Shown here: positions 651-48,610 of the stretch, piece after piece
Layout: every line of letters starts with the position of its first letter
Position numbering within the stretch: the first letter of the stretch is position 1
IMG/VR virus record: IMGVR_UViG_3300011727_000001
Span: 19,900-83,899 of that record
DNA from: a virus
Lineage: Duplodnaviria; Heunggongvirae; Uroviricota; Caudoviricetes
Direction: 5' to 3' (one strand)
Length of the DNA stretch: 64,000 nt
Notes under the pieces: generated by a model
Seen by the model: only the letters and a program-made list of their open reading frames with translations
Databases searched by the model: none
What the model was told of the DNA's origin: nothing
Translations under genes and position numbers: made by a program

Positions 651-1604
651 TTAATTACTCTTAGCGAGACCGGCTGCGATGCGAGAAGCGCCAAAAAGCT
701 GGTCACCCCGCTTAGCAATTTCCTGCTGAGACTGTGTGCCAGAGTTATTATGGCGTGAACCTGCACCCGGCGTCATCTTTGCCTTCATCAGGGAATCTTT
801 ATCCGGATCAGCCTCTACGATCTTGCGCAAAGCTGCATCAAAAGACAAAGGTTCGCCACCGGCGTCGACAAGAGGCGTGCGGCCGGATGCGCCAGCGGGC
901 TTGTCATAAGCGACCGTCTTACCGTCCTTCATCTCAAAGTGACTGCCGTAAAGAACGCGAGCTTTTGTAGGCGTCAGAACCAGATCTTCAGAAATGAATT
1001 TGGAGGTCGCAAAGTTTTGACCAACGGTGAGATTGTCGATGTCGCCAGAAAGGGTCTTGATCGTTCCCTGAAGCGTATTGCGTTCTTCATCCCATGCCTT
1101 GCGTTCAGCTTCGCGCTCTTCAGCGATACGCTGCTTCAGACGATCATATTCGCCTTTAGCTTCGAGATCCTTCTCTTCACGGGTCTTTTCCGCTTCGAGC
1201 AGAGCCTTCACCTTATCGAGATCGATGCCTTTGAACTTGGCCAGCTCGGTATTAGCCGTCAGCAGAGCTTCTTCAGTTTCCTTCAGTTTGCCCTTCTTTT
1301 CCATGACTTCGCGCAGGAGTTTGCTTTTCTCCTTTTCGCTTTCGCTCATGTTTTTTTCGGCTTCTTCCTGAGCTTTGCGGTCAGCTTCCGCTTTTTCCGC
1401 GGCAGCCTTTTCAGCAGCAGCTTTCTCGGCACTAGCCTTTTCTGCGGCCGCCTGCTCAGCGGCAGCTTTTTCCGCTTCACTTGGCTCAGTCGCGCCGCCG
1501 CCTGCTCCGGTTTCTGGAGCCAGGAATGGTTTAGGGCCGCGGCCTGACATAATGGTAGCGATACCACCGCCAGCAGCCAATGCACGTTTCAGGACAACAC
1601 TCAT
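651..1604 (-). CDS. Probable head scaffolding protein (Ala/Glu/Lys-rich coiled coil)
   Basis: 317 aa. Low-complexity AEKAAAEK repeats and heptad-like charged segments. Lies between the portal and capsid genes. Confidence 0.5.
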   Translation of the reverse strand: MSVVLKRALAAGGGIATIMSGRGPKPFLAPETGAGGGATEPSEAEKAAAEQAAAEKASAEKAAAEKAAAEKAEADRKAQEEAEKNMSESEKEKSKLLREVMEKKGKLKETEEALLTANTELAKFKGIDLDKVKALLEAEKTREEKDLEAKGEYDRLKQRIAEEREAERKAWDEERNTLQGTIKTLSGDIDNLTVGQNFATSKFISEDLVLTPTKARVLYGSHFEMKDGKTVAYDKPAGASGRTPLVDAGGEPLSFDAALRKIVEADPDKDSLMKAKMTPGAGSRHNNSGTQSQQEIAKRGDQLFGASRIAAGLAKSN

Positions 1605-1637: not shown

Positions 1638-3278
1638 TCATTTTCGTCCGGTATCTTGGACTTCCTTTTGGCCTTTAGTAGCCGGTGATTTTTCATTCGG
1701 AGTATCCTTCGTGACCTGCCCCTGGCGGGACTGACCGGCGACCGGAGTTGAGCCGAATGAGGTTGGCGGCTGAAGGGAAATTTCCTCCCCCTCAAGCCAG
1801 TTGTTGATATCTTCTTGGATCTTCTGTTTGATGTCATTGCGCAGTTGCGGGAACAGCTTCTCAATCATAAGGCGCATATGCTCGCGACGGATTTCCGCTG
1901 GAGCCGTCAATTTCGCCAATGCCTCAGCTGTCACAAGATCATCAACCAGACGCATAACGTCGAAAGTGGTTGGATAGGTTACGAGGTTGTCCGTAGGCGT
2001 GGGAATACCCGCCCAACGACAAACCAGATCGACAATCTTATTTTCAGCGTTCTGACAGGACTGCGCTTTCGTCAGCAGGAGTGAATTCACACGCTCAAAG
2101 TCATATGCTTTGGCAACACCAGATGAGTTATCAATACCGACCGCGTTGTCCTGCTTGGTGCGTTCACCTGCCAAACCAATGGTGTGATAAATCTCGTTGA
2201 TGATTTTGTTAATCACCGCAAGAATAACGCCGGCCTGTTTCGGATCAGGCGACAGATACTCAGGCTTGGCACTTGAACCGGCGCCTGGATCATAAACAAA
2301 GACGCGCTTGGTGCCGAGTTCCAACACCTTGCTATACATATCATCACCGGCGGAAATAGCATTTGCCGGAATAGCCAACTGAGAGAAGGTCTGATCTTGA
2401 ATAATCGCATCAAGGTTTGACAAATAGTTGGTTACTGCGCGATCCAGATAAGCAATATCATCAATAAGCCCCTGAGCCTCATATGGCTGGGACTCGATAG
2501 TGTGATCATGCAAGATGACCGGGACAATACCGAGATCATGCGTCTGGCGATCAATCTCGCGCACCACGCGCTCAACTTTTCGGCCAGATTTAACCTCATA
2601 TTCTTCGAACAACACCCATTCATTGCGTGTCCAGAGGCGCATACGTTCGATAACTTCGCCTGAATCCTCGATTGGATCGGCATCGTTTCGTGTTAGTTCC
2701 CGAAGCTTGATCCACAGCAGACCACCGTCGCCATCTTCATCGTAAGCGTAATCAAGAATGTCCAGAGCATTGACCACGTAAGCATAGATACGAATATCTT
2801 GCTTTTTGGCTTCCGCAACAGAAATGGCTCGATTTGCTCCATTCTCGGTCTCTGTAACTCTCATGTTGTTATCGACCACGATAGCAACACGTCCAAAAAT
2901 GGAATTAGCGCCAGCCGACGAGCGCATGAATTGCGAGATGTCGTGACCATTCAAAGTGGTTCGTGACCAAAACTTTTTGACAATATCAGGCGCATCATCG
3001 AGCTTGCGAGCAATCGAGCCTTTAAAAAGGTATTTCTGAACGAGGTCGACCACCTCGCGAGTGTGGTTGAAGCGATAGGCGCGCTGCAGTCGCTTACCAA
3101 ACTCTTCCTCGCCTTCCTTGTGATAGCGAAAAATATTGTCCGTAAACCATGCCCGGCCGCCATTGTAGCAAGCTGAGAGAAAATGCCAGTGAGCCGCCAT
3201 AATATTATAGCGAGGATGACGCCGATCGTAGAAGGCGCGAAGTTTATTATTATGGTCTGCTTGTTTTACCGTTGCCAT
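1638..3278 (-). CDS. Portal protein
   Basis: 546 aa, immediately downstream of the large terminase gene. Size and position are typical of a portal, with an acidic/Gln-rich C-terminal tail. Confidence 0.55.
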   Translation of the reverse strand: MATVKQADHNNKLRAFYDRRHPRYNIMAAHWHFLSACYNGGRAWFTDNIFRYHKEGEEEFGKRLQRAYRFNHTREVVDLVQKYLFKGSIARKLDDAPDIVKKFWSRTTLNGHDISQFMRSSAGANSIFGRVAIVVDNNMRVTETENGANRAISVAEAKKQDIRIYAYVVNALDILDYAYDEDGDGGLLWIKLRELTRNDADPIEDSGEVIERMRLWTRNEWVLFEEYEVKSGRKVERVVREIDRQTHDLGIVPVILHDHTIESQPYEAQGLIDDIAYLDRAVTNYLSNLDAIIQDQTFSQLAIPANAISAGDDMYSKVLELGTKRVFVYDPGAGSSAKPEYLSPDPKQAGVILAVINKIINEIYHTIGLAGERTKQDNAVGIDNSSGVAKAYDFERVNSLLLTKAQSCQNAENKIVDLVCRWAGIPTPTDNLVTYPTTFDVMRLVDDLVTAEALAKLTAPAEIRREHMRLMIEKLFPQLRNDIKQKIQEDINNWLEGEEISLQPPTSFGSTPVAGQSRQGQVTKDTPNEKSPATKGQKEVQDTGRK

Positions 3279-8089: not shown

Positions 8090-8779
8090 TTATGATCTTT
8101 GATCAATATATGCGACAAAGGCATCCGCACCTTTCTGCCCCGTCTCATCTTCAATACGGGACATGAAATCGCGAATGATGCGTGATTGAGAGATGGATAC
8201 ACGTTTGAAACCGAGCGCATCAGCGACCGGCGCCGCAGTATCATCAACCTCTTCAGTTTTTTGAATATTAGCCTGCTGCTGAGCCTCAACCGCCTCACTA
8301 ATATTTTCTACGAAGAAATCATCATTGATTTCACCGAGGTCTGCAGTTGAAAAATCCAGCTCTTTTTCATCAAAACCAAGCGTGGTCAGATCGATATCTG
8401 TTTCCGCCAACCGGCGCAGTTCGTCTTGAATGAGAGCCATATCGTAAGATTGGCCCGTCACTCGGTTATCTGCCAAACGAAGTGCGTCGGCTTGGTCTTT
8501 GGTTAGGTCAGAACGAACAATAACCGGCACACGTTTACGACCGAGTTTGATGGCGGCCAGACGACGGCCATGACCTGCGATGATCTCGCCGTTTGTCCAA
8601 ATGACAATAGGCTGTGTCCAGCCATAGGTCAGAATAGAGTTTGCCAGTTTCTCGACTTCACCTTCAGGGTGATTTTTCGCATTAAGCGCATATGGAACGA
8701 GCTTATCGACATCCCATAGCTCAATTTTGGGCTGATCACTCATCATAGGTCTTTCTATAAATATCCATAAGTTCTTCAC
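8090..8779 (-). CDS. ParB-like nuclease domain protein 1; start probably at MMSDQ near 8746
   Basis: ParB N-terminal box GHGRRLAA, plus conserved ParB/Srx-like surroundings. Confidence 0.6.
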   Translation of the reverse strand: MKNLWIFIERPMMSDQPKIELWDVDKLVPYALNAKNHPEGEVEKLANSILTYGWTQPIVIWTNGEIIAGHGRRLAAIKLGRKRVPVIVRSDLTKDQADALRLADNRVTGQSYDMALIQDELRRLAETDIDLTTLGFDEKELDFSTADLGEINDDFFVENISEAVEAQQQANIQKTEEVDDTAAPVADALGFKRVSISQSRIIRDFMSRIEDETGQKGADAFVAYIDQRS

Positions 8780-8905: not shown

Positions 8906-9634
8906 TCACTCGGCGATCTCCGCCAATGCCGCATCAAGTTCTTTGTCGGTGATCTGGTCTTGGAGCCCTTTCACATCGAACTGATCAATCAGAAGATGAA
9001 CCAAGGCGTCACCGGCGTTTGTAAGATCATCAGCATCAGTGAAGGATTGGGCTTTTTGCGTTCGAGCGATCAAAGCGGTCAGCCGCTCTGCGTCACGCAG
9101 GGATAGTTTAAAGCGCATTACCGTATGAGTTTTGGGCGCCTTGGCGGCCGGAGGTTCAGGCGCCTCCTCAATCTCCGACGTTTCGAAATTCCCGTCAATT
9201 TCCAGATCGTCGAGCGCTATATTAACACTTGAGAAGATTGTTGTGAGATCCTCGTCCCCATAAGGAAGGAAGCTTTGCAGTTCGTTTGCATCACCCATGC
9301 TTTTAAGAAGTTCGGCAAAGCTCAAGGTGTCATCGGCGCCGTAACGAGCATTATCGAGAACCGAAATCTCTTTGGCGCGCTTATCATCAATCGGCCCCAG
9401 ATTTACGACTGGAATTTCAGAAAGTCCGAGTTTAACGGCTGCCTGCCATCGATGCTCGCCGCCGATAATCTCCAGCACACCATCAACTTCTCGAACAACA
9501 ACAGGCTTGAATAGCCCGTTTCGTTTAATCGACTCCTCAAGTTTCGCTTCATTATCAGGCGACACGAAATTCGTGTTCCAGGAGTTAGCCTGAAGCTTTT
9601 GAGGGGCAATATTGAGCAATTGTGGTTGCGGCAA
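8906..9634 (-). CDS. ParB-like nuclease domain protein 2
   Basis: ParB box GGEHRWQAA. 242 aa. Acidic C-terminal half. Confidence 0.6.
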   Translation of the reverse strand: MPQPQLLNIAPQKLQANSWNTNFVSPDNEAKLEESIKRNGLFKPVVVREVDGVLEIIGGEHRWQAAVKLGLSEIPVVNLGPIDDKRAKEISVLDNARYGADDTLSFAELLKSMGDANELQSFLPYGDEDLTTIFSSVNIALDDLEIDGNFETSEIEEAPEPPAAKAPKTHTVMRFKLSLRDAERLTALIARTQKAQSFTDADDLTNAGDALVHLLIDQFDVKGLQDQITDKELDAALAEIAE

Positions 9635-12715: not shown

Positions 12716-13375
12716 ATGAGCGAATTAGTGATCGCGTGCCTATCCCAGAAGGGCGGCGTAGGTAAATCTACCCTCGCTCGTTTGATCGCCAGAACTTATG
12801 CTTCTGCCGGCTGGCGCGTAAAAATAGCTGACTTCAATACCAAACAGCTCACCTCTGTCGATTGGGTGGGCATGAGAATGTCTACCGATATGGTGCCGGA
12901 GATTGCGGCGGAGCCATATACCTCGGTCAAGGGTTTCAAGCGCGAGCCGTTTGATTTGATCGTTGCCGATGGCAAGCCTGATAGTGATAACTCCAGTCTG
13001 GATATCGCTAAGGCCGCGCAGCTGGTGATTATTCCAACCGGTTTGGCTTTGGACGATCTTAAACCCCAAATCCTATTCGCGAACGAACTGGTTTCAAAAG
13101 GCGTTGACCGCAAGCGGATCTTAATCGTCCTGAATAAAATCACCGAAAGCACAACTGCTGTTCAAGAGGCGCGCGAATATCTGCGGTCAGCTGGGTATCA
13201 GATCGCGGAAAACGACCTTACTGCAAAGACCGGCTATCAGATGGCGCAGAATATCGGCCGGTCGGTAGCTGAAACGAATTTCCAATCTCTGAACGAGCGC
13301 GCCGATGAACTGGCCGCAGAAATTGTCCAGAAGATGAACGAATTATCGGAGGCCGCAAATGAGCAAGGCAAGTAA
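12716..13375 (+). CDS. parA: ParA/MinD-family partition ATPase
   Basis: Deviant Walker A LSQKGGVGKST. 219 aa. Confidence 0.8.
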   Translation: MSELVIACLSQKGGVGKSTLARLIARTYASAGWRVKIADFNTKQLTSVDWVGMRMSTDMVPEIAAEPYTSVKGFKREPFDLIVADGKPDSDNSSLDIAKAAQLVIIPTGLALDDLKPQILFANELVSKGVDRKRILIVLNKITESTTAVQEAREYLRSAGYQIAENDLTAKTGYQMAQNIGRSVAETNFQSLNERADELAAEIVQKMNELSEAANEQGK

Positions 13376-13616
13376 TCCAACCAAAGCCCCTGTGCCAAAG
13401 CCAGCCCGTTCGCTCAAAATGAGCTTTATGGGAGCCGCTGTAGCCCCGACAACTCCTGCAAGCAATATGACCGAAAAGCTGAAGGATATGAGCTTTAAAG
13501 TCGATCCGGAGTTTCACCGTCGCTACAAATCAGCGGCGGCGCTTAATGGCGTTCAAATGAAGGATATCCTTGAACAAAGCTTTGAACTCTGGCTGGAAAA
13601 GCAGAATTCAAAATGA
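13359..13616 (+). CDS. ParG-like small DNA-binding partner (putative ribbon-helix-helix C-terminus)
   Basis: 85 aa. Overlaps the ParA stop. Disordered basic N-terminus and structured C-terminus, typical of ParG/RHH centromere-binding proteins. Confidence 0.4.
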   Translation: MSKASNPTKAPVPKPARSLKMSFMGAAVAPTTPASNMTEKLKDMSFKVDPEFHRRYKSAAALNGVQMKDILEQSFELWLEKQNSK

Positions 13617-13730
13617 GGAGGCGCCCGTTACAGGGCGCTTTCGCTTTTTAGCGATAAGGCTAAAGGCCGAAATCGCGAAAACAATCATGGCAATCGAGAA
13701 GATGGCGTGCGTTACAATAACTTCAGTCAT
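13608..13730 (-). CDS. Small TM peptide (~40 aa), translationally coupled to the HslV-like gene
   Basis: MTEVIVTHAIFSIAMIVFAISAFSLIAKKRKR.... Its ATG overlaps the HslV-like stop (TATGACTGA). Confidence 0.3.
   Translation of the reverse strand: MTEVIVTHAIFSIAMIVFAISAFSLIAKKRKRPVTGASSF
13619..13649 (+). terminator. Rho-independent terminator ending the ParA/ParG operon
   Basis: GCGCCC-gttaca-GGGCGC followed by TTTCGCTTTTT. Confidence 0.6.
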
Positions 13731-14193
13731 AGCTGACAGTCTCCACTTTACCGCCAGTCCACGGATCAAGCTGAATTGCCAGCTCAACCGCTTCAACGGC
13801 ACTCCTGCCCAGAACCATAGCGGCAAGTGCAGTCTGCTCACCGCTGCCAATTGCGTAGTAATCGGCCTTTAGAGGGCCGCTGAAAGCCTGTCCATCATCC
13901 CAGTAGTAGGCATCACCGGCTTTATCGACAACGAGCGCCTGGACGCCGTATTCGCGATCTGCATTAATTCTGGTCAGATCGCTACTTCCAGTCCCAAGAT
14001 GCTCAACAAGAAGGTGTAGGAAGCACGTTGGCTCGCCAACCTTACTGGACGAGATGCCGATGAGAAAATCACCGATCTTAAAGACTTTGCTTTTGGAGCC
14101 GATCGGATGTTTATCACCAGACCATGCTCGGCTGTCTCCAGCCATAATTCCATCACGATAAGCAATTGTGGTCATTGGAACGCTTTCTGACAT
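13723..14193 (-). CDS. HslV/proteasome-beta-like Ntn-hydrolase peptidase; mature N-terminus probably the MTTIAY start near 14175
   Basis: TTIAYRDGIMAGDSR matches the HslV TTIVSVRRNGHVVIAGDGQ region. KVFKIGDFLIGISS matches KVRRLYNDKVIAGFAG. YAIGSGEQTALAA matches IAIGSGGPYAQAA. Confidence 0.65.
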   Translation of the reverse strand: MSESVPMTTIAYRDGIMAGDSRAWSGDKHPIGSKSKVFKIGDFLIGISSSKVGEPTCFLHLLVEHLGTGSSDLTRINADREYGVQALVVDKAGDAYYWDDGQAFSGPLKADYYAIGSGEQTALAAMVLGRSAVEAVELAIQLDPWTGGKVETVSYD

Positions 14194-14399
14194 TCGCGAA
14201 CAGCAGTGGCGAAAAGAGCAATCGCAAGTGCGGGATCGACACCGGCGGTCAGAGCTTCCTGAGCTGATATCTCGATTTTAGCATTGGCAGCAGTCATAGC
14301 CTCAATAATCTCCGCTTTGTAAGCTTCGAGGCTTTCGGTGTAGCGGAGTAGGGCGCTTGCTTTCTGAAGCTCCGGATCATGATTATCGACGTGAGACAT
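14172..14399 (-). CDS. Hypothetical protein
   Basis: 75 aa, all-alpha. Overlaps the HslV-like gene start. Confidence 0.35.
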   Translation of the reverse strand: MSHVDNHDPELQKASALLRYTESLEAYKAEIIEAMTAANAKIEISAQEALTAGVDPALAIALFATAVRECQKAFQ

Positions 14400-14423
14400 G
14401 AAACCTCTCTTTCAGTCATAACC

Positions 14424-14445
14424 ATAAGTAAGCGCTTACCTACAG
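14424..14445 (-). promoter_or_regulatory. Promoter-like motif (ATAAGTAAGCGCTTACCTACAG)
   Basis: Consensus core, 25 nt upstream of the 14399 start. Confidence 0.4.
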
Positions 14446-14740
14446 TCAATCGGAAATAGCGGTTTAGCTAAAGGGCGATAAGGCTATGTAGCGAAATAGC
14501 AGGAGCGGTGGTTAGAGAGGATATTCGGGTTCTGGGATTTCCCGGATGTCAACTTAAGCCAATGTCCGTCTCGATAAGTCCAGTAGGAGAGGTGGTTAGG
14601 AGCCGGAAGTGTGGCGAGCGATGTATGTATCCCCTTGATTTCATTACGTTTTTTCTAAGACTTCGCTTGCATCATGTGCAGCATATGCTATTCTCTAATC
14701 ATCAGAGAGCGAGACAAACAAACAAGCAATCTGACAAAAC

Positions 14741-31501: not shown

Positions 31502-32365
31502 TTATCGGATATTCAGAAATGGAACGGTTGAGCCGGGAACGAACTGCTGCGGCAGAGCGCCATCCCATTTTTGAGCTTTCGTCAGTTCAACCAGATTAGG
31601 ACTATCACGCAAGGCGTCTGATTTTGCTTTAATAGCCGACGCCTCCGCTTCACCTTTTAGACGAGTGGATTCGGCTTCAGCGGCTGCTTCCGCAAGTTTA
31701 ACCTTCGCATTTGCTTCCGCTTCATTTACCCGGATCTGGTTGTCAACTTCGGCGCGTTTCAACTCTTCACGACGTGTATTTGTTGCCATTTCAGCTCTGG
31801 CGCGATCTTCGGCTGCTCGCTCGACGGTATCGGAAAAATTGATATTCTCGATATTGATACCTTCGATCTTAATCTGACGATCGCCGATAACAGCAACAGC
31901 TGAGGATAGCTCGGTATTCAAACGGCCACGTTCGCGAATAGCAGCTTCTGCATTGAATTTGCCAAATACGCTTTTGATATGCTCACGAACCTGACGTTTA
32001 AGAACGCGATCTTCAAATCCGGCAAGCGTCTGATATTCCCGGTAGACAGACATAATCACATCGTCGGTGGAAACCGGGGCGTAATTGATTGAGAAGGTTA
32101 CATTCGCTGTCTGGCGATCTGAGGTGTAAACCGGCTCATTCGGAAATTCGATAACCTGGGTGCGTGTGGAGATGTATTTCACATCGTCAATGAATGGCTT
32201 TTTAAGGTGAAAGCCTGGCTGGGCAACACCGGCGATTTTACCCTGACTGACGATAACACCGCGCTCACCTTCATCGACGGTGTAGAACGAACCACCGAGA
32301 AGTCCGATAGCGAAAATTGCGACAATGCCAGCTACAATAAGCTTTGCGATGGATGATGGTTTCAT
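31502..32365 (-). CDS. SPFH/band-7 (prohibitin/HflKC-like) membrane protein
   Basis: N-terminal TM, then YTVDEGERGVIVSQGK and an SPFH core, then a coiled-coil Ala/Glu-rich tail. Confidence 0.7.
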   Translation of the reverse strand: MKPSSIAKLIVAGIVAIFAIGLLGGSFYTVDEGERGVIVSQGKIAGVAQPGFHLKKPFIDDVKYISTRTQVIEFPNEPVYTSDRQTANVTFSINYAPVSTDDVIMSVYREYQTLAGFEDRVLKRQVREHIKSVFGKFNAEAAIRERGRLNTELSSAVAVIGDRQIKIEGINIENINFSDTVERAAEDRARAEMATNTRREELKRAEVDNQIRVNEAEANAKVKLAEAAAEAESTRLKGEAEASAIKAKSDALRDSPNLVELTKAQKWDGALPQQFVPGSTVPFLNIR

Positions 32366-33221: not shown

Positions 33222-34664
33222 TTATGCGACTTTTTGTTGGGTTGTTTCATTAAAGCCAAGGCGAAGATCCAGCGCGTAACCGGCCTCATCACTGCGTTTA
33301 CGAACGGCTTCGAAGCTTTCACCTTCATAGTGACCATTCATATAGATCACCTTCAGGGCGTTGGCGTCGATCTGCTCCGGCGTGGCTTCACTTTCTTTCA
33401 GAACCACACTGGTATTGCCATCGCGAAGAACGATCTGACGACCAGCCTTGGACGTCTTAGAGGGATCGGTCGCTGGCTTTTTCTGAATATCTTCCCAGCC
33501 TGCACCGGTAGAAATTGCGTTGGCTTTCATGGCGAAATTCAGATCGTTACGAGTATGGCTTTGCAGCAATCCGCCGCCCATACCAAATGCGATATTGTCG
33601 ATGGAGAAACCAGCTGCAGCCATTTCAACCATAAGATTAGCAATCGATTCCGCGTTCATACCGTCGCCTTGAATGACGCCGACTTTCGAGTTCAGAACGC
33701 GATGACCTTTGCTGTTCACGGTGCCGCCGAATTTATCCCAAAGGATTTGCAGCGTTTTGATTGGTGTAAGAACCGGGTCTCCCGAATCCGGACGCACAAT
33801 CAGTTTCCCGCCGATCTTCATGATCTTATCGCGCAGCTCGCCGCCGTAGATATTTTCCAGGGCGTTAAACAGATCATAGCTGTCTGAAACAACCGAGAAC
33901 ATACCGTCCCCAAAGGCGTCGATCATATTGCTATAAGCTTTCGCCTCGCCATCGCGACCCCAAGAGGTCATAGTCGAGTGCTCTGAGGCAGGGATCGAAT
34001 AACCGGCGCAGATATTCCGATCATTATAAATACGGCGAACCGCGAGAAGTCCTTCGATCGTATCTGTGCCTTGGAAGTTAATCAGGTGCGCCATTGCGCC
34101 CAGACCGGCAGATTCACCGCTCGATACACCGCGTCCGCCGAAGTCATGCAATTTGAACGGCAGACCGTCCAGGTTATCGCATGTAAGGCGCATCATTCCC
34201 CGGATCATCGCTTTGACGTGGAAAGAGGTTGTCGCAACAGAGGTAGGATACCAGATGGCGCGAAGCATTGCTGTTTCAACGAAGCTTGTCAGCCAAGGCA
34301 GATCAGGGTCAGTGTTGCGAACCTGAACCAGAGGCACGCTCTTTTCCACATAGCTGCCTTCTGGCAGCGATTGAATCTCCAACGGCAGGTAACCGTTGTG
34401 CTTCATCACAATGTGCTCCCAGCCAGCGCGATTGAACGGCAGACCGTGTGTCTTCATCAACGCTTCGGCTTCGTCAATCATTGATGGCGTGATCTGATGC
34501 ATCAGATAATCGCGAATGAAGGCGTGAATGCCGACAAACAGGACGCCGCCTGGCTGATCAGTTGGGCGGGATTCGATATACGAGGACATGAACTTTGTGT
34601 TCGGCGGCAGCTGGAGAAAATGCGAGTGCTTATAGCTATCACTCGCCAGAATGATATTCGTCAT
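33222..34664 (-). CDS. nadV: Nicotinamide phosphoribosyltransferase (NAMPT/NadV family)
   Basis: 480 aa. N-terminal NIILASDSYKHSHF...PPNT matches the NAMPT NILLATDSYK signature. Length fits. Confidence 0.8.
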   Translation of the reverse strand: MTNIILASDSYKHSHFLQLPPNTKFMSSYIESRPTDQPGGVLFVGIHAFIRDYLMHQITPSMIDEAEALMKTHGLPFNRAGWEHIVMKHNGYLPLEIQSLPEGSYVEKSVPLVQVRNTDPDLPWLTSFVETAMLRAIWYPTSVATTSFHVKAMIRGMMRLTCDNLDGLPFKLHDFGGRGVSSGESAGLGAMAHLINFQGTDTIEGLLAVRRIYNDRNICAGYSIPASEHSTMTSWGRDGEAKAYSNMIDAFGDGMFSVVSDSYDLFNALENIYGGELRDKIMKIGGKLIVRPDSGDPVLTPIKTLQILWDKFGGTVNSKGHRVLNSKVGVIQGDGMNAESIANLMVEMAAAGFSIDNIAFGMGGGLLQSHTRNDLNFAMKANAISTGAGWEDIQKKPATDPSKTSKAGRQIVLRDGNTSVVLKESEATPEQIDANALKVIYMNGHYEGESFEAVRKRSDEAGYALDLRLGFNETTQQKVA

Positions 34665-34673
34665 AGTAACCTC

Positions 34674-35702
34674 TTAGAGCAGGTTGGAGATGAGGGTGAA
34701 GTGATCTTCGAAGAACCGGTCTGAACCGAGATCATCGAAGTAATACCAATCCGCGTGAGCGGCATCGTCGCCGCCGGCGACAGCGGGAAGATCAATGTGG
34801 TTCGGGATGACAAACATATACATCATCGAAACCACACGACCGCGCAGTGACCGTGACGGATTATCGGCAAGCTCGTGGCTGGCCAGATTATGTTCGATGT
34901 TGGACAGATCGAGACCGGTTTCTTCCTTCAGCTCACGCTTAGCGGCTTCAAGAAAAGTTTCACCGCTTTCAACGAAACCGCCGGGTGTCGCGAGCAATCC
35001 GCGTCCAATTGCTTTACCGCGTGTCACAAGCAGGATCTTACCGCGATGAACAACGAGAGCGTCTGCGGCGAGAAATGGCCCTGTGCCGTATTCTTCACGG
35101 TTACGCTGATATGTATCGACCTCAGCCACAAGGTTTTTGAACGCATCGCTGAAAGTGAATGCTTTCATCCAAGGCAAGAGGCGAGCGGAGACTGCATCTT
35201 GCGGCAGGCGCGGCAGGCGGCGCAAATATTCGATCCGAATATCGGAAGCGTTAATGGTGCCATGCTGGGCTGTCAGCTGAACGGAGTTCCATTCGGGAAA
35301 CATATTCAGATAGTAGGACGAGGCATCTTTGCCGTATCCGGTTAACGCAATCGTTACGTCGCGCAGACCATGATTACGAAAACCACCGCCGTTGAGATGA
35401 TCCAAGACAGCTTCGTTAACGGTTTTGCGCAGTTCATTCGCCCAACGATAGTCCGGCTGGTAATCGCGAAGAGGGGCGATGATAATGCGGCCGGACATTA
35501 CTTCGTGACGGAACACGCTTTCGATCATTTCTTTTCGTTCATCAAAGGTGAACGGGTTGATCGGCGTGCGAGCCTGATAGGCAGAGCCGACAATCAGAAT
35601 GAGAGTTTCAACCTTGTTCAAGGCTTCGCGAATAACGTGCTCATGCCCGATATGCAGTGGCTGGAAGCGCCCAATGTAAACGCCGTAATTGTAGTCAGCC
35701 AT
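34674..35702 (-). CDS. Bifunctional NMN adenylyltransferase (NadM-type) with C-terminal Nudix hydrolase
   Basis: N-terminal GRFQPLHIGH nucleotidyltransferase motif. C-terminal Nudix box GGFVESGETFLEAAKRELKEETGL. Confidence 0.8.
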   Translation of the reverse strand: MADYNYGVYIGRFQPLHIGHEHVIREALNKVETLILIVGSAYQARTPINPFTFDERKEMIESVFRHEVMSGRIIIAPLRDYQPDYRWANELRKTVNEAVLDHLNGGGFRNHGLRDVTIALTGYGKDASSYYLNMFPEWNSVQLTAQHGTINASDIRIEYLRRLPRLPQDAVSARLLPWMKAFTFSDAFKNLVAEVDTYQRNREEYGTGPFLAADALVVHRGKILLVTRGKAIGRGLLATPGGFVESGETFLEAAKRELKEETGLDLSNIEHNLASHELADNPSRSLRGRVVSMMYMFVIPNHIDLPAVAGGDDAAHADWYYFDDLGSDRFFEDHFTLISNLL

Positions 35703-44758: not shown

Positions 44759-44782
44759 CATAACTAAGTAATTACTTACCTT
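44759..44782 (-). promoter_or_regulatory. Promoter-like motif preceded by a 9-bp inverted repeat
   Basis: CATAACTAAGTAATTACTTACC. IR GATCGTGGG / CCCACGATC at 44730-44759. Confidence 0.45.
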
Positions 44783-46145
44783 CTCGCGCACGACGAAGGG
44801 CGCGAAGTTTCTTACCGCATACACCGTAGAGCTTTTCGGCCTGTCGTTGCGAGATTTCACCAGCTTCAACACGCGTGTAAGCCTCACGATACTTCTCCGG
44901 AATTTCAGTCGGATCAGACTTTGCTTTCGGAGCAGGAGTGGCCGCCTTTACTGGCTTCTTGGCTGGCTTTTTCTTTTTCACAACCGCCTGTTTAGCTTTC
45001 TTCTCAGCCACCGCTTCTGCGACAACCTTTTTCACCTCTTTTACCGAAACACTTTCTTCAGGTTTCTTGTCATCGAGCGCAGCAACAGGTTTCGCATCCT
45101 TCTTGATTTCAGCCACCTTCGGCAGGCTGTTGCCCACAACTTCAACCTTCGGGGTGATAGAAAGATCGGTGCCTTTAGGGCCGCCGATAATAACTGCCTC
45201 AATCACTCCGATATGATCACCAGCAATAACATTGGCGAGGATTTGGGCTGATGGGGCGTGAGACGTCATAGGTTTGTTATTAATCAGCAGCGAATATGCT
45301 TCTTGAGGAAGCTTAGCCACGATGTGATAAGCAGCGGCGCGCATCTTATCCGGCTCGTTATATGGAACCGCGATCACATCTTCCGGTGCAACTTTAATCA
45401 GCGTGACCAGATCGCCGCCAAATCCGCGAATATAGCCGCGGCGCGCGACGTGCAAACCGGTCGAGCACTCAACACGACGGCTATCATCAACCATCTTTTC
45501 TGCCATAGACACGCGAGAGCCAACGCGTTGTGGCACATTCCGACTGTGGCAATCGTGAAAGAGATCGGCGGCTTTGTCGCGATATTTCAGGATCTTGTAA
45601 GCAACGATCGAGCCATCATCGGCAATCGGCAAATCGCCGCGTTCCATGAAGTTCAAAAGTTCCTGCACAGAATGCTTGCGTTTATCGATAACTTTGGAGA
45701 GACGTTCCAGAAACTTCTCAAGACCTTTGGAGTTCTGAAACGCTGCATATTCAAGCTGTTTTTCGAGCTTTTCGACGCCGGGAATTTCAACACCATTCAC
45801 CACAGCGACAGTTGTTTCCGCTTCGGGATTGACCGTTGGAGCGACGTAATGACGATCCGTTTCCTGATTGCCATTACCGAGATTGAAGTGCGAGGCAAAA
45901 TCTTTGAATTTGCGTTTGATGAAGCGAATGAAACCGCCGGACTGTTTCTCGATTTTGCTTTCGAGCGAATAATTATCCAGGTCGATCTCAACGGTTTTGT
46001 GCTTGGCGAGTGGGCGCACGATGTCGTCCATGATCGACTTGGTGCGCCAGCCAGACGCCGGCAGATTAATCTCCTTGCCTTCAGAGGTGTAGAGGGTGAC
46101 GCCATCCTTACTTGTGATGGCGGATACAATGCGAACCTTACTCAT
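44772..46145 (-). CDS. rIIB: rIIB-like protein
   Basis: Block STGLHVARRGYIRGFGG...VAPEDVIAVPYNEPDKMRAAAYHIV aligns with T4 rIIB SRGLHVCSKSYIRHFGS...VHPRDVVSIPIDYNDAKMRTCQYEV. It lies directly downstream of the rIIA-like gene. Lys/Ala-rich C-terminal tail. Confidence 0.7.
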   Translation of the reverse strand: MSKVRIVSAITSKDGVTLYTSEGKEINLPASGWRTKSIMDDIVRPLAKHKTVEIDLDNYSLESKIEKQSGGFIRFIKRKFKDFASHFNLGNGNQETDRHYVAPTVNPEAETTVAVVNGVEIPGVEKLEKQLEYAAFQNSKGLEKFLERLSKVIDKRKHSVQELLNFMERGDLPIADDGSIVAYKILKYRDKAADLFHDCHSRNVPQRVGSRVSMAEKMVDDSRRVECSTGLHVARRGYIRGFGGDLVTLIKVAPEDVIAVPYNEPDKMRAAAYHIVAKLPQEAYSLLINNKPMTSHAPSAQILANVIAGDHIGVIEAVIIGGPKGTDLSITPKVEVVGNSLPKVAEIKKDAKPVAALDDKKPEESVSVKEVKKVVAEAVAEKKAKQAVVKKKKPAKKPVKAATPAPKAKSDPTEIPEKYREAYTRVEAGEISQRQAEKLYGVCGKKLRALRRAREGK

Positions 46146-48610
46146 GCTGCTTCCTTTTCAACTACTGCGATTTTGTTGATGGTGATTGGCGCAGGAGCCG
46201 GAACTGGCTCTGCGTCAGGAATTGCTTTGATTTTGGGAGTTTGGGCGGCAAGGGTTGCCGCTTTGGCTTCAGCTTTCGCTTGTGCCTGATATTTTCGTTG
46301 AAGAGCCTTCACAACGATCATAAAGTCGTCCAGCGATGCGGCGTCATCAACATTTGCGTAAGGAAATGACTTTGCAAAGACGCTCAGATAGGCAAATTTC
46401 CGGTTCGCCTCTCTACGCTCCAAACGCAAATATCCGTAAACACTTTGCGCGGCATTAATCACCGCCTCCAGCATTTCTGAAATCCGGGCGTGTTCGCCCT
46501 GATCTTGTTTTTTGCGCTGATATTGCCCGTGCAAGCGCTCTTTCAGCCTTTGAGTGCAAAACAATGCCTTTTCAAAAACTTCGGTAAGTTTAGTTTTAGG
46601 CGGGAAAAACCATTCAGCAGCCGATCGATGATGTATAACGGATTGAACGAGCTGCGACGGTTCGCGATATCCGACGTTCTCAGCGACAAATCCCTGAGCC
46701 ATCATGACCGCGTAAAGCACCTCTTTCTTCTTGATATTTTCATGAAGAAACTCCGCCATTGCGGCATAAAGATTAACCGAACCACGCGCCTTTAACGCCG
46801 CTTCATCTTTGACATCACATGCAATCGCGACATCGCCGAAATAATTTGTAACCGTCTTCGCATAGTTCGTAACCGGCCCCACGCCATAACTGTGATACCA
46901 GTCATTTACCTGGCGAAGATAATATCGTGCTGTGACGAGAGCTGGCTCGCCCTGCTCTTTTTTATTCGGTTTCAAATTCATCAAGCTGATGAAACGAGCG
47001 TCTTCCGGCGTTTTCTTTGCGCGTTTAGGCGGTGCGGTGATCGCAACCTCTTCAACGCTGATGCCATAGCGTTGAGCTTCCTGTTTGATTTTAGCAATCA
47101 TGCCGTGTTGGCTGCGCTTCAAAACAAATGTCATGTAGCTATGAGCGTTGCCATATTCCGGATCTTTAATTTTCGCGCGTTTCCGTTCATCCGCAATAGT
47201 CGAAATCACGTCCCGTTGATTAAAACTGATATAGAGCTTTGGCATCACCTCGGCATCGGATTGATCTACCGTATCGATGCGCTTCGGCTTCGCCAGTCCA
47301 GCCCAACTGCCGACTTCGAAAGAAAATAAATTTCTATGCAAAGCCAATTTATTTGCAATGCGAAGATACAGGCGGCTTTCGACTTTAAAATCATCAATTC
47401 CACGATCCCTCGCGCGGCGGAAAACGCGACGATAATCAGGGCGAAGTTTCGCAAACTCACGTCGAACGGCCTTAACTTGGTTGCGAACCAAACGCTCAAT
47501 ATGAAAAACGGCCAGTTTCGCTGCAATGTCCTCGATCCGAACAACTGCAGCTTTTGGGCTATCATCAACCTGACGCGTTATTTCGCGATAGTCCTGGTAG
47601 TTAATTCTGCGATTCCAAATTCGCTTCTCGTTGGTCGAGATCACCGCGGCGGTATCCTTGATAATCGTCTTGGCCACCGGCTTCATGCTTTGTTCGAGAA
47701 CGCGATGGGCGCGCTGCATCAAACCAAGCAGAGTATTTTTAGTCTTATCTGTATAAGACAGGGACTCACGAGAGGGTGTTACGCCGACCGAATTAGCGGC
47801 CGCCATTACAATTAAACGATATTGATGCGGAATAAGGTTTCCGATTTTAACCAGACTGTCATGAATCTCTTTATCTGTGGTGGAGACCGGATAAAGAACG
47901 GTGCCATAAAGACAATAAACATGGCTTTCATTCATTCCGGCTCTTGGTGCCAGAATGAAATTATGCGTGGCGTTCTCGTAGTCGAAACGGTTGATCAAAT
48001 CGCCATTCAGATTGGCGACCATTCCGCCCTGCATAACTACAGAGCGAATAATCTCCTCAAACTCGGCGCGATCTTTTTCGTTTTTCAACGGAATAGAGAC
48101 GGTGACGCCGGTTTCTTCACTCGGCACTTTTACCATCTGTCGGAAGTCAGGTTTACCATCCGTCTCAGCGCCGCCGCGCGAGATCGCAAACACATGACGA
48201 AAACCACCGTTACAAGATGTCACGGAGAAGTGGTCGGAATAAGCAAATGGGGCTTTCGAACCGAGGCCGAAACCGCCGGTCTGACTGGAGTCCTGGATCT
48301 TAGTGGTGCCACCGTAGCGACAATAGATCGTGCCGATCTTGTCAGCGGGAATACCTGGGCCAAAGTCCTTAATGACCAGCTCTGTGTCAGTTAGGGTGAT
48401 TTCTACCGGAATATCACGCTTATTGGACACGATGTGCGCGTCATAGGCGTTACATACAACCTCGCGCACAACGGCGCGCTTCTTATCACGGTAAAGAGTG
48501 TCAGAAAGAACGGTAAAGAATTCTGCGGATTCTGACATTGTGAATGCGTGGGCTTTGCCACCGCCAATAATGGCGTGAGTATCGAGCCCTGCTATCTGCG
48601 ATACTTCCAT
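46142..48610 (-). CDS. rIIA: rIIA-like protein (N-terminal GHKL/HATPase_c domain)
   Basis: N-box REVVCNAYDAH (ExxxNAxDA) and G1 box KDFGPGIP. 822 aa. Adjacent to the rIIB homologue. Confidence 0.7.
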   Translation of the reverse strand: MEVSQIAGLDTHAIIGGGKAHAFTMSESAEFFTVLSDTLYRDKKRAVVREVVCNAYDAHIVSNKRDIPVEITLTDTELVIKDFGPGIPADKIGTIYCRYGGTTKIQDSSQTGGFGLGSKAPFAYSDHFSVTSCNGGFRHVFAISRGGAETDGKPDFRQMVKVPSEETGVTVSIPLKNEKDRAEFEEIIRSVVMQGGMVANLNGDLINRFDYENATHNFILAPRAGMNESHVYCLYGTVLYPVSTTDKEIHDSLVKIGNLIPHQYRLIVMAAANSVGVTPSRESLSYTDKTKNTLLGLMQRAHRVLEQSMKPVAKTIIKDTAAVISTNEKRIWNRRINYQDYREITRQVDDSPKAAVVRIEDIAAKLAVFHIERLVRNQVKAVRREFAKLRPDYRRVFRRARDRGIDDFKVESRLYLRIANKLALHRNLFSFEVGSWAGLAKPKRIDTVDQSDAEVMPKLYISFNQRDVISTIADERKRAKIKDPEYGNAHSYMTFVLKRSQHGMIAKIKQEAQRYGISVEEVAITAPPKRAKKTPEDARFISLMNLKPNKKEQGEPALVTARYYLRQVNDWYHSYGVGPVTNYAKTVTNYFGDVAIACDVKDEAALKARGSVNLYAAMAEFLHENIKKKEVLYAVMMAQGFVAENVGYREPSQLVQSVIHHRSAAEWFFPPKTKLTEVFEKALFCTQRLKERLHGQYQRKKQDQGEHARISEMLEAVINAAQSVYGYLRLERREANRKFAYLSVFAKSFPYANVDDAASLDDFMIVVKALQRKYQAQAKAEAKAATLAAQTPKIKAIPDAEPVPAPAPITINKIAVVEKEAA

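Follow-up and report, generated by a model that had tools for sequence, protein, structure and literature searches.

A PPH-family proteasome-like hydrolase in a three-gene cassette of a RHEph10-like phage-plasmid

Introduction

What role might a proteasome-like hydrolase play in a tailed phage when no HslU-like unfoldase is encoded beside it? The question is raised by a minus-strand gene (13723..14175, stop included) in a 64,000-nucleotide stretch of a Caudoviricetes genome, positions 19,900 to 83,899 of the IMG/VR record IMGVR_UViG_3300011727_000001. This whole stretch is hereafter called the window, and coordinates refer to it unless another locus is named. An initial annotation, made without database searches, described the product as an HslV/proteasome-like N-terminal-nucleophile hydrolase that lacks an HslU partner and is coupled to a 40-aa transmembrane peptide. 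The analysis reported here identifies the protein as a member of the PPH family, a minimal branch of ~140-150 aa of the proteasome-beta/HslV/BPH superfamily, and not as HslV proper. The family was already known; this gene adds one member to it, and the function of the family is uncharacterised. I argue below that the protein is, on balance, probably an ATPase-independent accessory peptidase, encoded in a coupled three-gene cassette and directed at the host (takeover or counter-defence) rather than at capsid maturation.

Results

The PPH family was described by Fuchs et al. (2021) as proteins of ~140 residues that occur in Caudovirales and their proteobacterial hosts, that lie on the HslV/BPH side of the superfamily, and that are devoid of a propeptide, of helix H2 and of the C-terminal S12/H5 elements (PMC8665760). 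The 150-aa window peptidase (MTTIAYRDG...) matches the PHROG family phrog_1040, 'peptidase HslV family', with E=9.4e-33, and a profile built from an alignment of 63 diverse homologues matches solved HslV (1m4y, E=1.5e-11; E. coli HslV, E about 1e-10) as well as proteasome beta subunits. Against the Pfam Proteasome model (PF00227) the peptidase scores 13.7 bits, below the cut-off of 22.4; 25 of the 63 family members pass this model individually (E<=0.01). A scan against NCBIfam, HslV models included, gave no family match. Profile searches, which the initial annotation had proposed as a check, support the assignment through phrog_1040 and the family profile and fail to do so through Pfam and NCBIfam.

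The alignment of the 63 sequences is invariant at M1, T2, G9, D14, K30, G110, G112, A116, A129 and D137, and when the family profile is compared with HslV, T2, D14 and K30 align with Thr1, Asp17 and Lys33. The predicted catalytic set of the window peptidase comprises T2 (Thr1 after Met removal), D14, K30, the G110-S111-G112 loop and D137, and the HslV motifs on which the initial annotation relied fall on the invariant columns T2, D14, K30, G110/G112 and D137. The Asp-x-x-Thr motif is invariant across the PPH family, as are the Thr/Asp/Lys triad and the GSG loop. As in the published description of the family, the protein consists of a single proteasome-like domain, with the nucleophile straight after Met1 and no propeptide; the Thr1/Asp17/Lys33 triad (proteasome numbering) is conserved; and the context is that of a tailed phage, the closest records being Rhizobium phages and Rhizobiaceae phage-plasmids.

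Structure prediction gave a confident proteasome-type fold that matches both BPH and HslV. The AlphaFold2 (AF2) model, with a predicted local distance difference test score (pLDDT) of 96.5 and a predicted TM-score (pTM) of 0.90, is a two-sheet sandwich whose only helices are residues 48-60, 113-121 and 126-136, the first being the lone helix between the sheets. H1, H3 and H4 are retained in the predicted fold, H2 and H5 are absent, and the model ends with a strand at residues 144-148 of 150, which leaves no S12/H5. At the position of H2, 15 residues of HslV ('gnltkaavelakdwr') have no counterpart in the family profile. A Foldseek search of the PDB returned BPH (5ovs) with the best E-value (9e-9), HslV with TM-scores of 0.78-0.79, and 20S beta subunits. 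What had been called an HslV/proteasome-like hydrolase thus keeps its place in the superfamily and its intact catalytic set, but is a PPH without helix H2 and not an HslV orthologue.

With HslV (ClpQ) the window peptidase shares the superfamily, the fold, an N-terminal MTTI as found in E. coli HslV, the catalytic residues and the GSG loop; it differs in being 25-30 residues shorter, in lacking H2 and an accompanying hslU, in remaining below the Pfam threshold and in being phage-encoded. Its likeness to BPH of Thiobacillus denitrificans (PDB 5OVS) lies in the Foldseek E-value, in group I of the proteasome-like proteins and in the independence from an unfoldase that BPH is thought to have, whereas BPH is a protein of ~185 aa that keeps H2, has a long acidic pore loop and forms heptameric double rings. 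In the PPH reference family the length, the Met-Thr start, the triad, the missing H2/S12/H5, the occurrence in phages and prophages and the absence of a partner gene are all as in the window peptidase; what distinguishes the latter from other PPH proteins is the RHEph10-like phage-plasmid context, the coupled 40-aa transmembrane open reading frame (ORF) and an ORFan in the slot that Acb2 occupies in relatives. Some relatives are extended at the C-terminus of a common core (the pLM21S1 protein, 207 aa; ZCKP1 gp033, 230 aa; matches in the structure database BFVD, 275-279 aa) and, unlike them, the window peptidase stops directly after the last core strand.

The N-terminus deserves separate treatment since it provides the putative nucleophile. 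The longest minus-strand ORF (13723..14193) encodes 156 aa with the N-terminus MSESVPMTTIAYRDG, and the initial annotation had placed the start at its first ATG, at 14193. The six additional codons (MSESVP, 14176..14193) are shared, out of frame, with the upstream 75-aa ORF, and the peptidase is probably translated without them. The TGA of the 75-aa ORF (14174..14172) and the second ATG (14175..14173) together form an ATGA overlap, homologues have M-T-T at residue 1, and position 1 of the family profile corresponds to residue 1 of the 150-aa protein. Because of this ATGA overlap and of the M-T-T starts of homologues, I take the peptidase to be 150 aa long and to begin at 14175, so that the earlier start was six codons too far upstream. 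The N-terminus is M-S-V, with Ser in place of the Thr nucleophile, in Rhizobium phage RHEph10 (L002 4001..4453), in plasmid pLM21S1 (L003 4001..4624) and in Pararhizobium p5 (L093 4001..4453); to judge from these N-termini, this lineage tolerates either Thr or Ser as the nucleophile. The 3' end of the gene reads ...TAT GAC TGA, and near-identical DNA of the peptidase region was not found among phage records.

In RHEph10-like elements PPH is the middle member of a conserved cassette: a variable small gene precedes it and a gene for a small membrane protein follows. The last of these is represented in the window by an ORF at 13608..13730 on the minus strand, encoding a 40-aa single-pass membrane peptide, MTEVIVTHAIFSIAMIVFAISAFSLIAKKRKRPVTGASSF. 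Its ATG is embedded in the 3' end of PPH, so that the two genes share 8 nt (ATGACTGA), which confirms the overlap reported initially, and a Shine-Dalgarno-like GGAG (13744..13741) lies 10 nt upstream. The peptide has one hydrophobic segment (maximum KD17 hydropathy 2.58) followed by a KKRKR tail. The ORF is conserved at loci L085, L086 and L001, and pN/pS, the ratio of nonsynonymous to synonymous polymorphism, amounts to 0.13-0.48 among three 40-aa versions, a range consistent with coding constraint. A small membrane ORF lies downstream of PPH in every RHEph10-like relative examined: it has 40 aa in the window and at L085, L086 and L087, 34 aa in Shinella, where it is unannotated and ATGA-coupled, and 62-68 aa with two transmembrane segments in RHEph10, pLM21S1 and Pararhizobium p5.

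Facing the cassette is a convergent operon on the plus strand (12716..13616) that is not part of it and consists of a ParA ATPase (12716..13375; ParA_partition, E=1.7e-23) and a ParG-like ribbon-helix-helix protein (13359..13616; ParG, 22.7 bits for a cut-off of 21.4). The stops of the ParG-like gene (13616) and of the 40-aa peptide (13608) overlap by 9 nt. A GC-rich hairpin at 13617..13642, scored on the plus strand as the intrinsic terminator of parA-parG, falls in the final 11 codons of the 40-aa ORF; transcription of the PPH cassette may stop at this hairpin as well. Because of this location, the conserved C-terminal tail of the peptide may reflect the hairpin and not the protein. Upstream of the cassette, a weak sigma-70-like promoter match (TTGACT-17-TATGGT) was found on the minus strand at 14421..14449; the number of such sites does not exceed that in shuffled sequences and so corresponds to chance expectation.

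The first gene of the cassette (14172..14399, minus strand), whose TGA overlaps the PPH ATG, encodes a 75-aa ORFan. It forms only 2 clusters in 5.8e9 proteins, occurs in the window and at L086 and L087, and belongs to no Pfam, PHROG or PADLOC family. In relatives the same slot holds a protein of the Acb2/Tad1-hairpin family (PF24729, cut-off 27 bits): it scores 56 bits at L085, whose PPH is 81% identical to that of the window, 49 bits for RHEph10 gp094 and 37 bits for pLM21S1, and the slot gene of Pararhizobium p5 is Acb2-like according to a local hidden Markov model made from the L085, RHEph10 and pLM21S1 proteins (E=1e-34). Acb2 and Tad1 are phage sponges for the signals of the cyclic-oligonucleotide-based defence system CBASS and of Thoeris. 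The idea that the ORFan is a divergent Acb2 found no support: it does not match PF24729, and its AF2 model, a helical hairpin with a pLDDT of 86.5, has zero Foldseek matches in the PDB. A PADLOC scan of the cassette proteins returned nothing. The ORFan is a candidate new anti-defence protein. Adjacency to Acb2 is confined to the RHEph10-like group and was ruled out as a trait of the whole PPH family.

The absence of an unfoldase noted initially was borne out wherever it was looked for. No AAA+ unfoldase of the HslU or ClpX type is found among the nine window ORFs of at least 400 aa, which were all assigned or scanned (portal, large terminase, DEAD helicase, nicotinamide phosphoribosyltransferase, rIIA, rIIB, ribonucleotide reductase, SbcC and one phrog_1735 protein that has no Pfam match); the complete RHEph10 genome annotation contains no HslU, ClpX or prohead protease; and no hslU was present among the neighbours of 66 PPH lineages, these being defined by clustering at 85% identity. 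Homologues were detected by tblastn in 491 phage records, including 231 Salmonella phages (Jersey-like) and 128 Escherichia phages (phi92-like and others), further carriers being Rhizobium, Pseudomonas, Vibrio, Aeromonas and Caulobacter phages and roseophages, and many of these homologues are already annotated as 'peptidase HslV family' or 'proteasome subunit beta'. An exhaustive profile search yielded 9317 clusters at 50% identity with E<=1e-10 and 693 with E<=1e-30, and BFVD holds 47 viral structure clusters at E<=1e-3. Since it is so widespread in phages, an HslV-like gene without hslU is the rule for the PPH family and no singularity of the window.

Some homologues reside outside phages. 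The Rhizobium leguminosarum pSym plasmid pRL9b2 (L092 6001..6534) carries a 177-aa PPH homologue directly after nifA-nifB-fdxN-nifT, in the symbiosis region and not in a prophage; this appears to be a domesticated bacterial copy, and ~14 plasmids are similar. Plasmid homologues such as those of NZ_KM659098.1 and NZ_CP119570.1 bear the PGAP label 'peptidase S14' (ClpP family), which looks like a propagated misannotation since neither Pfam nor the fold supports it. The sole related item found in the literature concerns Erwinia phage RAY, whose gp116, assigned to the 'HslVU family', is located in the phage nucleus; a lead to JSS1_004 (mBio 2025) proved irrelevant, as it mentions only the expression of host hslV.

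The neighbourhoods of PPH genes were compared using 80 IMG/VR loci (L004-L083; seed pattern MTTIAYR[DN]) together with annotated relatives, ORFs within 3.5 kb being clustered. Each neighbour family is limited to at most 8 of the 66 lineages, so there is no conserved partner. A small hydrophobic ORF lies immediately 3' of PPH in only 9 of 82 loci, essentially those of the RHEph10-like group, which rules out the transmembrane peptide as a family-wide partner; the coupling described initially is a local property of that lineage. PPH directly follows the head-tail adaptor Ad1 in 8 lineages and elsewhere precedes the head-closure gene Hc1 or stands beside scaffold, major capsid protein or portal genes. 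In 17 of the 66 lineages PPH has head or connector neighbours verified by PHROG (directly adjacent in 10), and in two IMG/VR lineages a lysozyme gene precedes PPH and is joined to it by an ATGA overlap. An upstream ORF terminates in such an overlap in 35 of 62 lineages whatever the gene, be it terminase, portal, adaptor, lysozyme or Acb2. Since the codons of the obligatory Met-Thr start, ATG-ACN, necessarily include TGA in the +1 frame, translational coupling is easy wherever PPH lands, and on the evidence of these gene orders PPH behaves as a mobile single-gene module. In the Salmonella phage wksl3, a Jerseyvirus (L088 3501..5054), PPH lies immediately upstream of a holin-holin-endolysin array; the Jersey-like phages are the largest group of PPH carriers, and this position hints at late or lysis-associated expression of PPH there.

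The replicon that carries the cassette is a RHEph10-like phage-plasmid, as indicated by two ParB-like genes (8090..8779 and 8906..9634, minus strand), the ParA/ParG operon and circular plasmid relatives of 115-117 kb. A 110.5-kb Logan contig encodes a protein 100% identical to the window PPH; a circular plasmid of Shinella (117 kb) encodes one with 61% identity, and for the homologues of Rhizobium phage RHEph10 (115 kb) and plasmid pLM21S1 the values are 36-40%. At loci L001-L003 and L093 gene order is conserved: helicase, kinase-like, ParA and ParG-like genes, convergent with the small transmembrane ORF, PPH and the upstream gene. On the minus strand of the window are also found rIIA/rIIB homologues (44772..48610) and a prohibitin-like SPFH/Band-7 protein (31502..32365), both present in RHEph10 too; other window genes encode scaffold, portal, large terminase, DEAD helicase, thymidylate synthase, ribonucleotide reductase and SbcCD. 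Adjacent minus-strand genes for nicotinamide phosphoribosyltransferase (NAMPT; 33222..34664; phrog_448, E=1.8e-151) and for an NMN adenylyltransferase/Nudix protein (34674..35702; phrog_395, E=3.3e-50) form an NAD+ salvage pair of the kind that phages use against NAD-depleting defences.

Discussion

The reading that I consider probable on balance, that of an ATPase-independent peptidase directed at the host, can be put in the form of a pathway. Host methionine aminopeptidase would expose Thr1. Subunits would then assemble, probably into rings, by means of the retained H3 and H4, because these are the ring-stacking helices of proteasomes. The assembly would act, in the manner of BPH or Anbu, as a peptidase that needs no ATPase, on unfolded or specific protein targets. 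PPH is the middle gene of a translationally coupled accessory cassette in a RHEph10-like phage-plasmid, and an accessory, host-directed role is suggested by its co-translation with a gene of anti-defence type and by its distance from the head and lysis modules.

Several observations weigh against this proposal. The anti-defence component derives only from adjacency in one lineage. The equivalent of the oxyanion-hole Gly47 is G40, in 'LIGISS', and this column is mostly Gly but Ala in several sequences; the three close relatives that begin M-S-V would use Ser, a weaker nucleophile in proteasomes. The literature yielded no functional study of a phage PPH and no biochemical or genetic data for any PPH. 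Lastly, since head, connector or lysis genes are the neighbours of PPH in many phages, the role of the family as a whole may not be host-directed.

A bolder version would make the entire cassette a counter-defence module, in which PPH, as a stand-alone threonine protease, degrades an immune protein of the host or a component of its signalling and is accompanied by a swappable slot of sponge type (Acb2/Tad1, replaced here by the 75-aa ORFan as a new inhibitor) and by the small membrane protein. In this specific form the proposal is unlikely.

A different possibility is that the phage peptidase docks on host HslU, or on another host AAA+ unfoldase, and thereby forms a hybrid ATP-dependent protease. 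PPH shares with HslV the superfamily, the Met-Thr-Thr N-terminus of the E. coli protein and a TM-score of 0.78-0.79, and proteobacterial hosts generally carry hslUV. HslV proper forms a double hexamer with grooves for the C-terminal tails of HslU, and the docking grooves are described in the literature as adjoining the beta-hairpin. The apical H1/H2 face, however, which in HslV and the proteasome is turned towards the regulator, has a variable loop in place of H2; no HslV-specific NCBIfam model matches the protein; and PPH clusters on the side of BPH, which according to PMC8665760 is not under the control of an unfoldase. Such docking is judged improbable.

The same low probability attaches to PPH as a morphogenetic protease of the prohead or virion. 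PPH genes do lie in the structural module elsewhere, whether after Ad1 or among the other head and connector neighbours, RHEph10-like genomes have no other annotated protease, and none is encoded between the window portal and scaffold. In the window, however, 8.5 kb separate the PPH gene from the terminase gene; PPH belongs to a different, convergent cassette next to parAG and is coupled to an anti-defence-type slot. The initial annotation was right that this is not the position of a prohead protease: the portal gene (1638..3278) directly adjoins the scaffold gene (651..1604), nothing being encoded between the two, and PPH lies ~10 kb away, outside the head module. A portal-scaffold order free of protease is moreover normal for assembly of the P22/T7/SPP1 type. 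Known prohead proteases (S78, as HK97 gp4; S14, ClpP-like; S49; S77, as T4 gp21) have a serine-protease fold, and the proteasome-type fold of PPH is not known from any of them. The neighbourhood counts are also to be read in the knowledge that structural genes are over-represented on IMG/VR contigs. A morphogenetic role is plausible in lineages that have PPH in the head module, but not here.

It is equally doubtful that PPH and the small membrane protein are a functional pair, be it as a protease tethered to the membrane or as a module for lysis or its timing, with a holin- or antiholin-like peptide. The 8-nt overlap, the small hydrophobic ORF that follows PPH in all RHEph10-like relatives examined, and the lysis-gene neighbours of PPH in wksl3 (holin-holin-endolysin) and in the two lysozyme-coupled IMG/VR lineages speak for such a pair. 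Holins are small membrane proteins with a charged C-terminus, encoded beside the endolysin; the 40-aa peptide has one transmembrane segment and a KKRKR tail. On the other side, nine of 82 PPH loci have such an ORF, the 1-transmembrane peptides (34-40 aa) and the 2-transmembrane proteins (62-68 aa) are not demonstrably homologous, and small transmembrane ORFs are frequent in phage accessory regions. For RHEph10, whose GH24 endolysin cassette is ~79 kb from PPH, it is unlikely that the membrane protein belongs to the main lysis cassette. Finally, PPH is very unlikely to be a specific amidohydrolase or transpeptidase resembling connectase, or a catalytically dead scaffold: the superfamily does include a ligase, connectase, and isolated proteasome subunits are inactive unless assembled (PMC8665760), and Ser replaces Thr in some relatives, but the S3/S4 helical insertion of connectase is absent from the AF2 model and the catalytic residues are all invariant across the 63 diverse sequences.

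PPH ranks among the largest enzyme families of unknown function carried by phages, and its carriers include Jersey-like Salmonella phages and phi92-like coliphages used in biocontrol. The locus described here leaves knowledge of the family as such unchanged. It offers a test case, in that a minimal enzyme of 150 aa is encoded in a compact coupled cassette and the neighbouring slot of relatives holds anti-CBASS genes. Its most useful contribution is a conserved cassette whose variable slot is of the Acb2 type; that adjacency gives a lead for a role in counter-defence or host takeover. If the counter-defence reading were true, it would give a family of ~9000 clusters its first function, that of a phage anti-immune protease.

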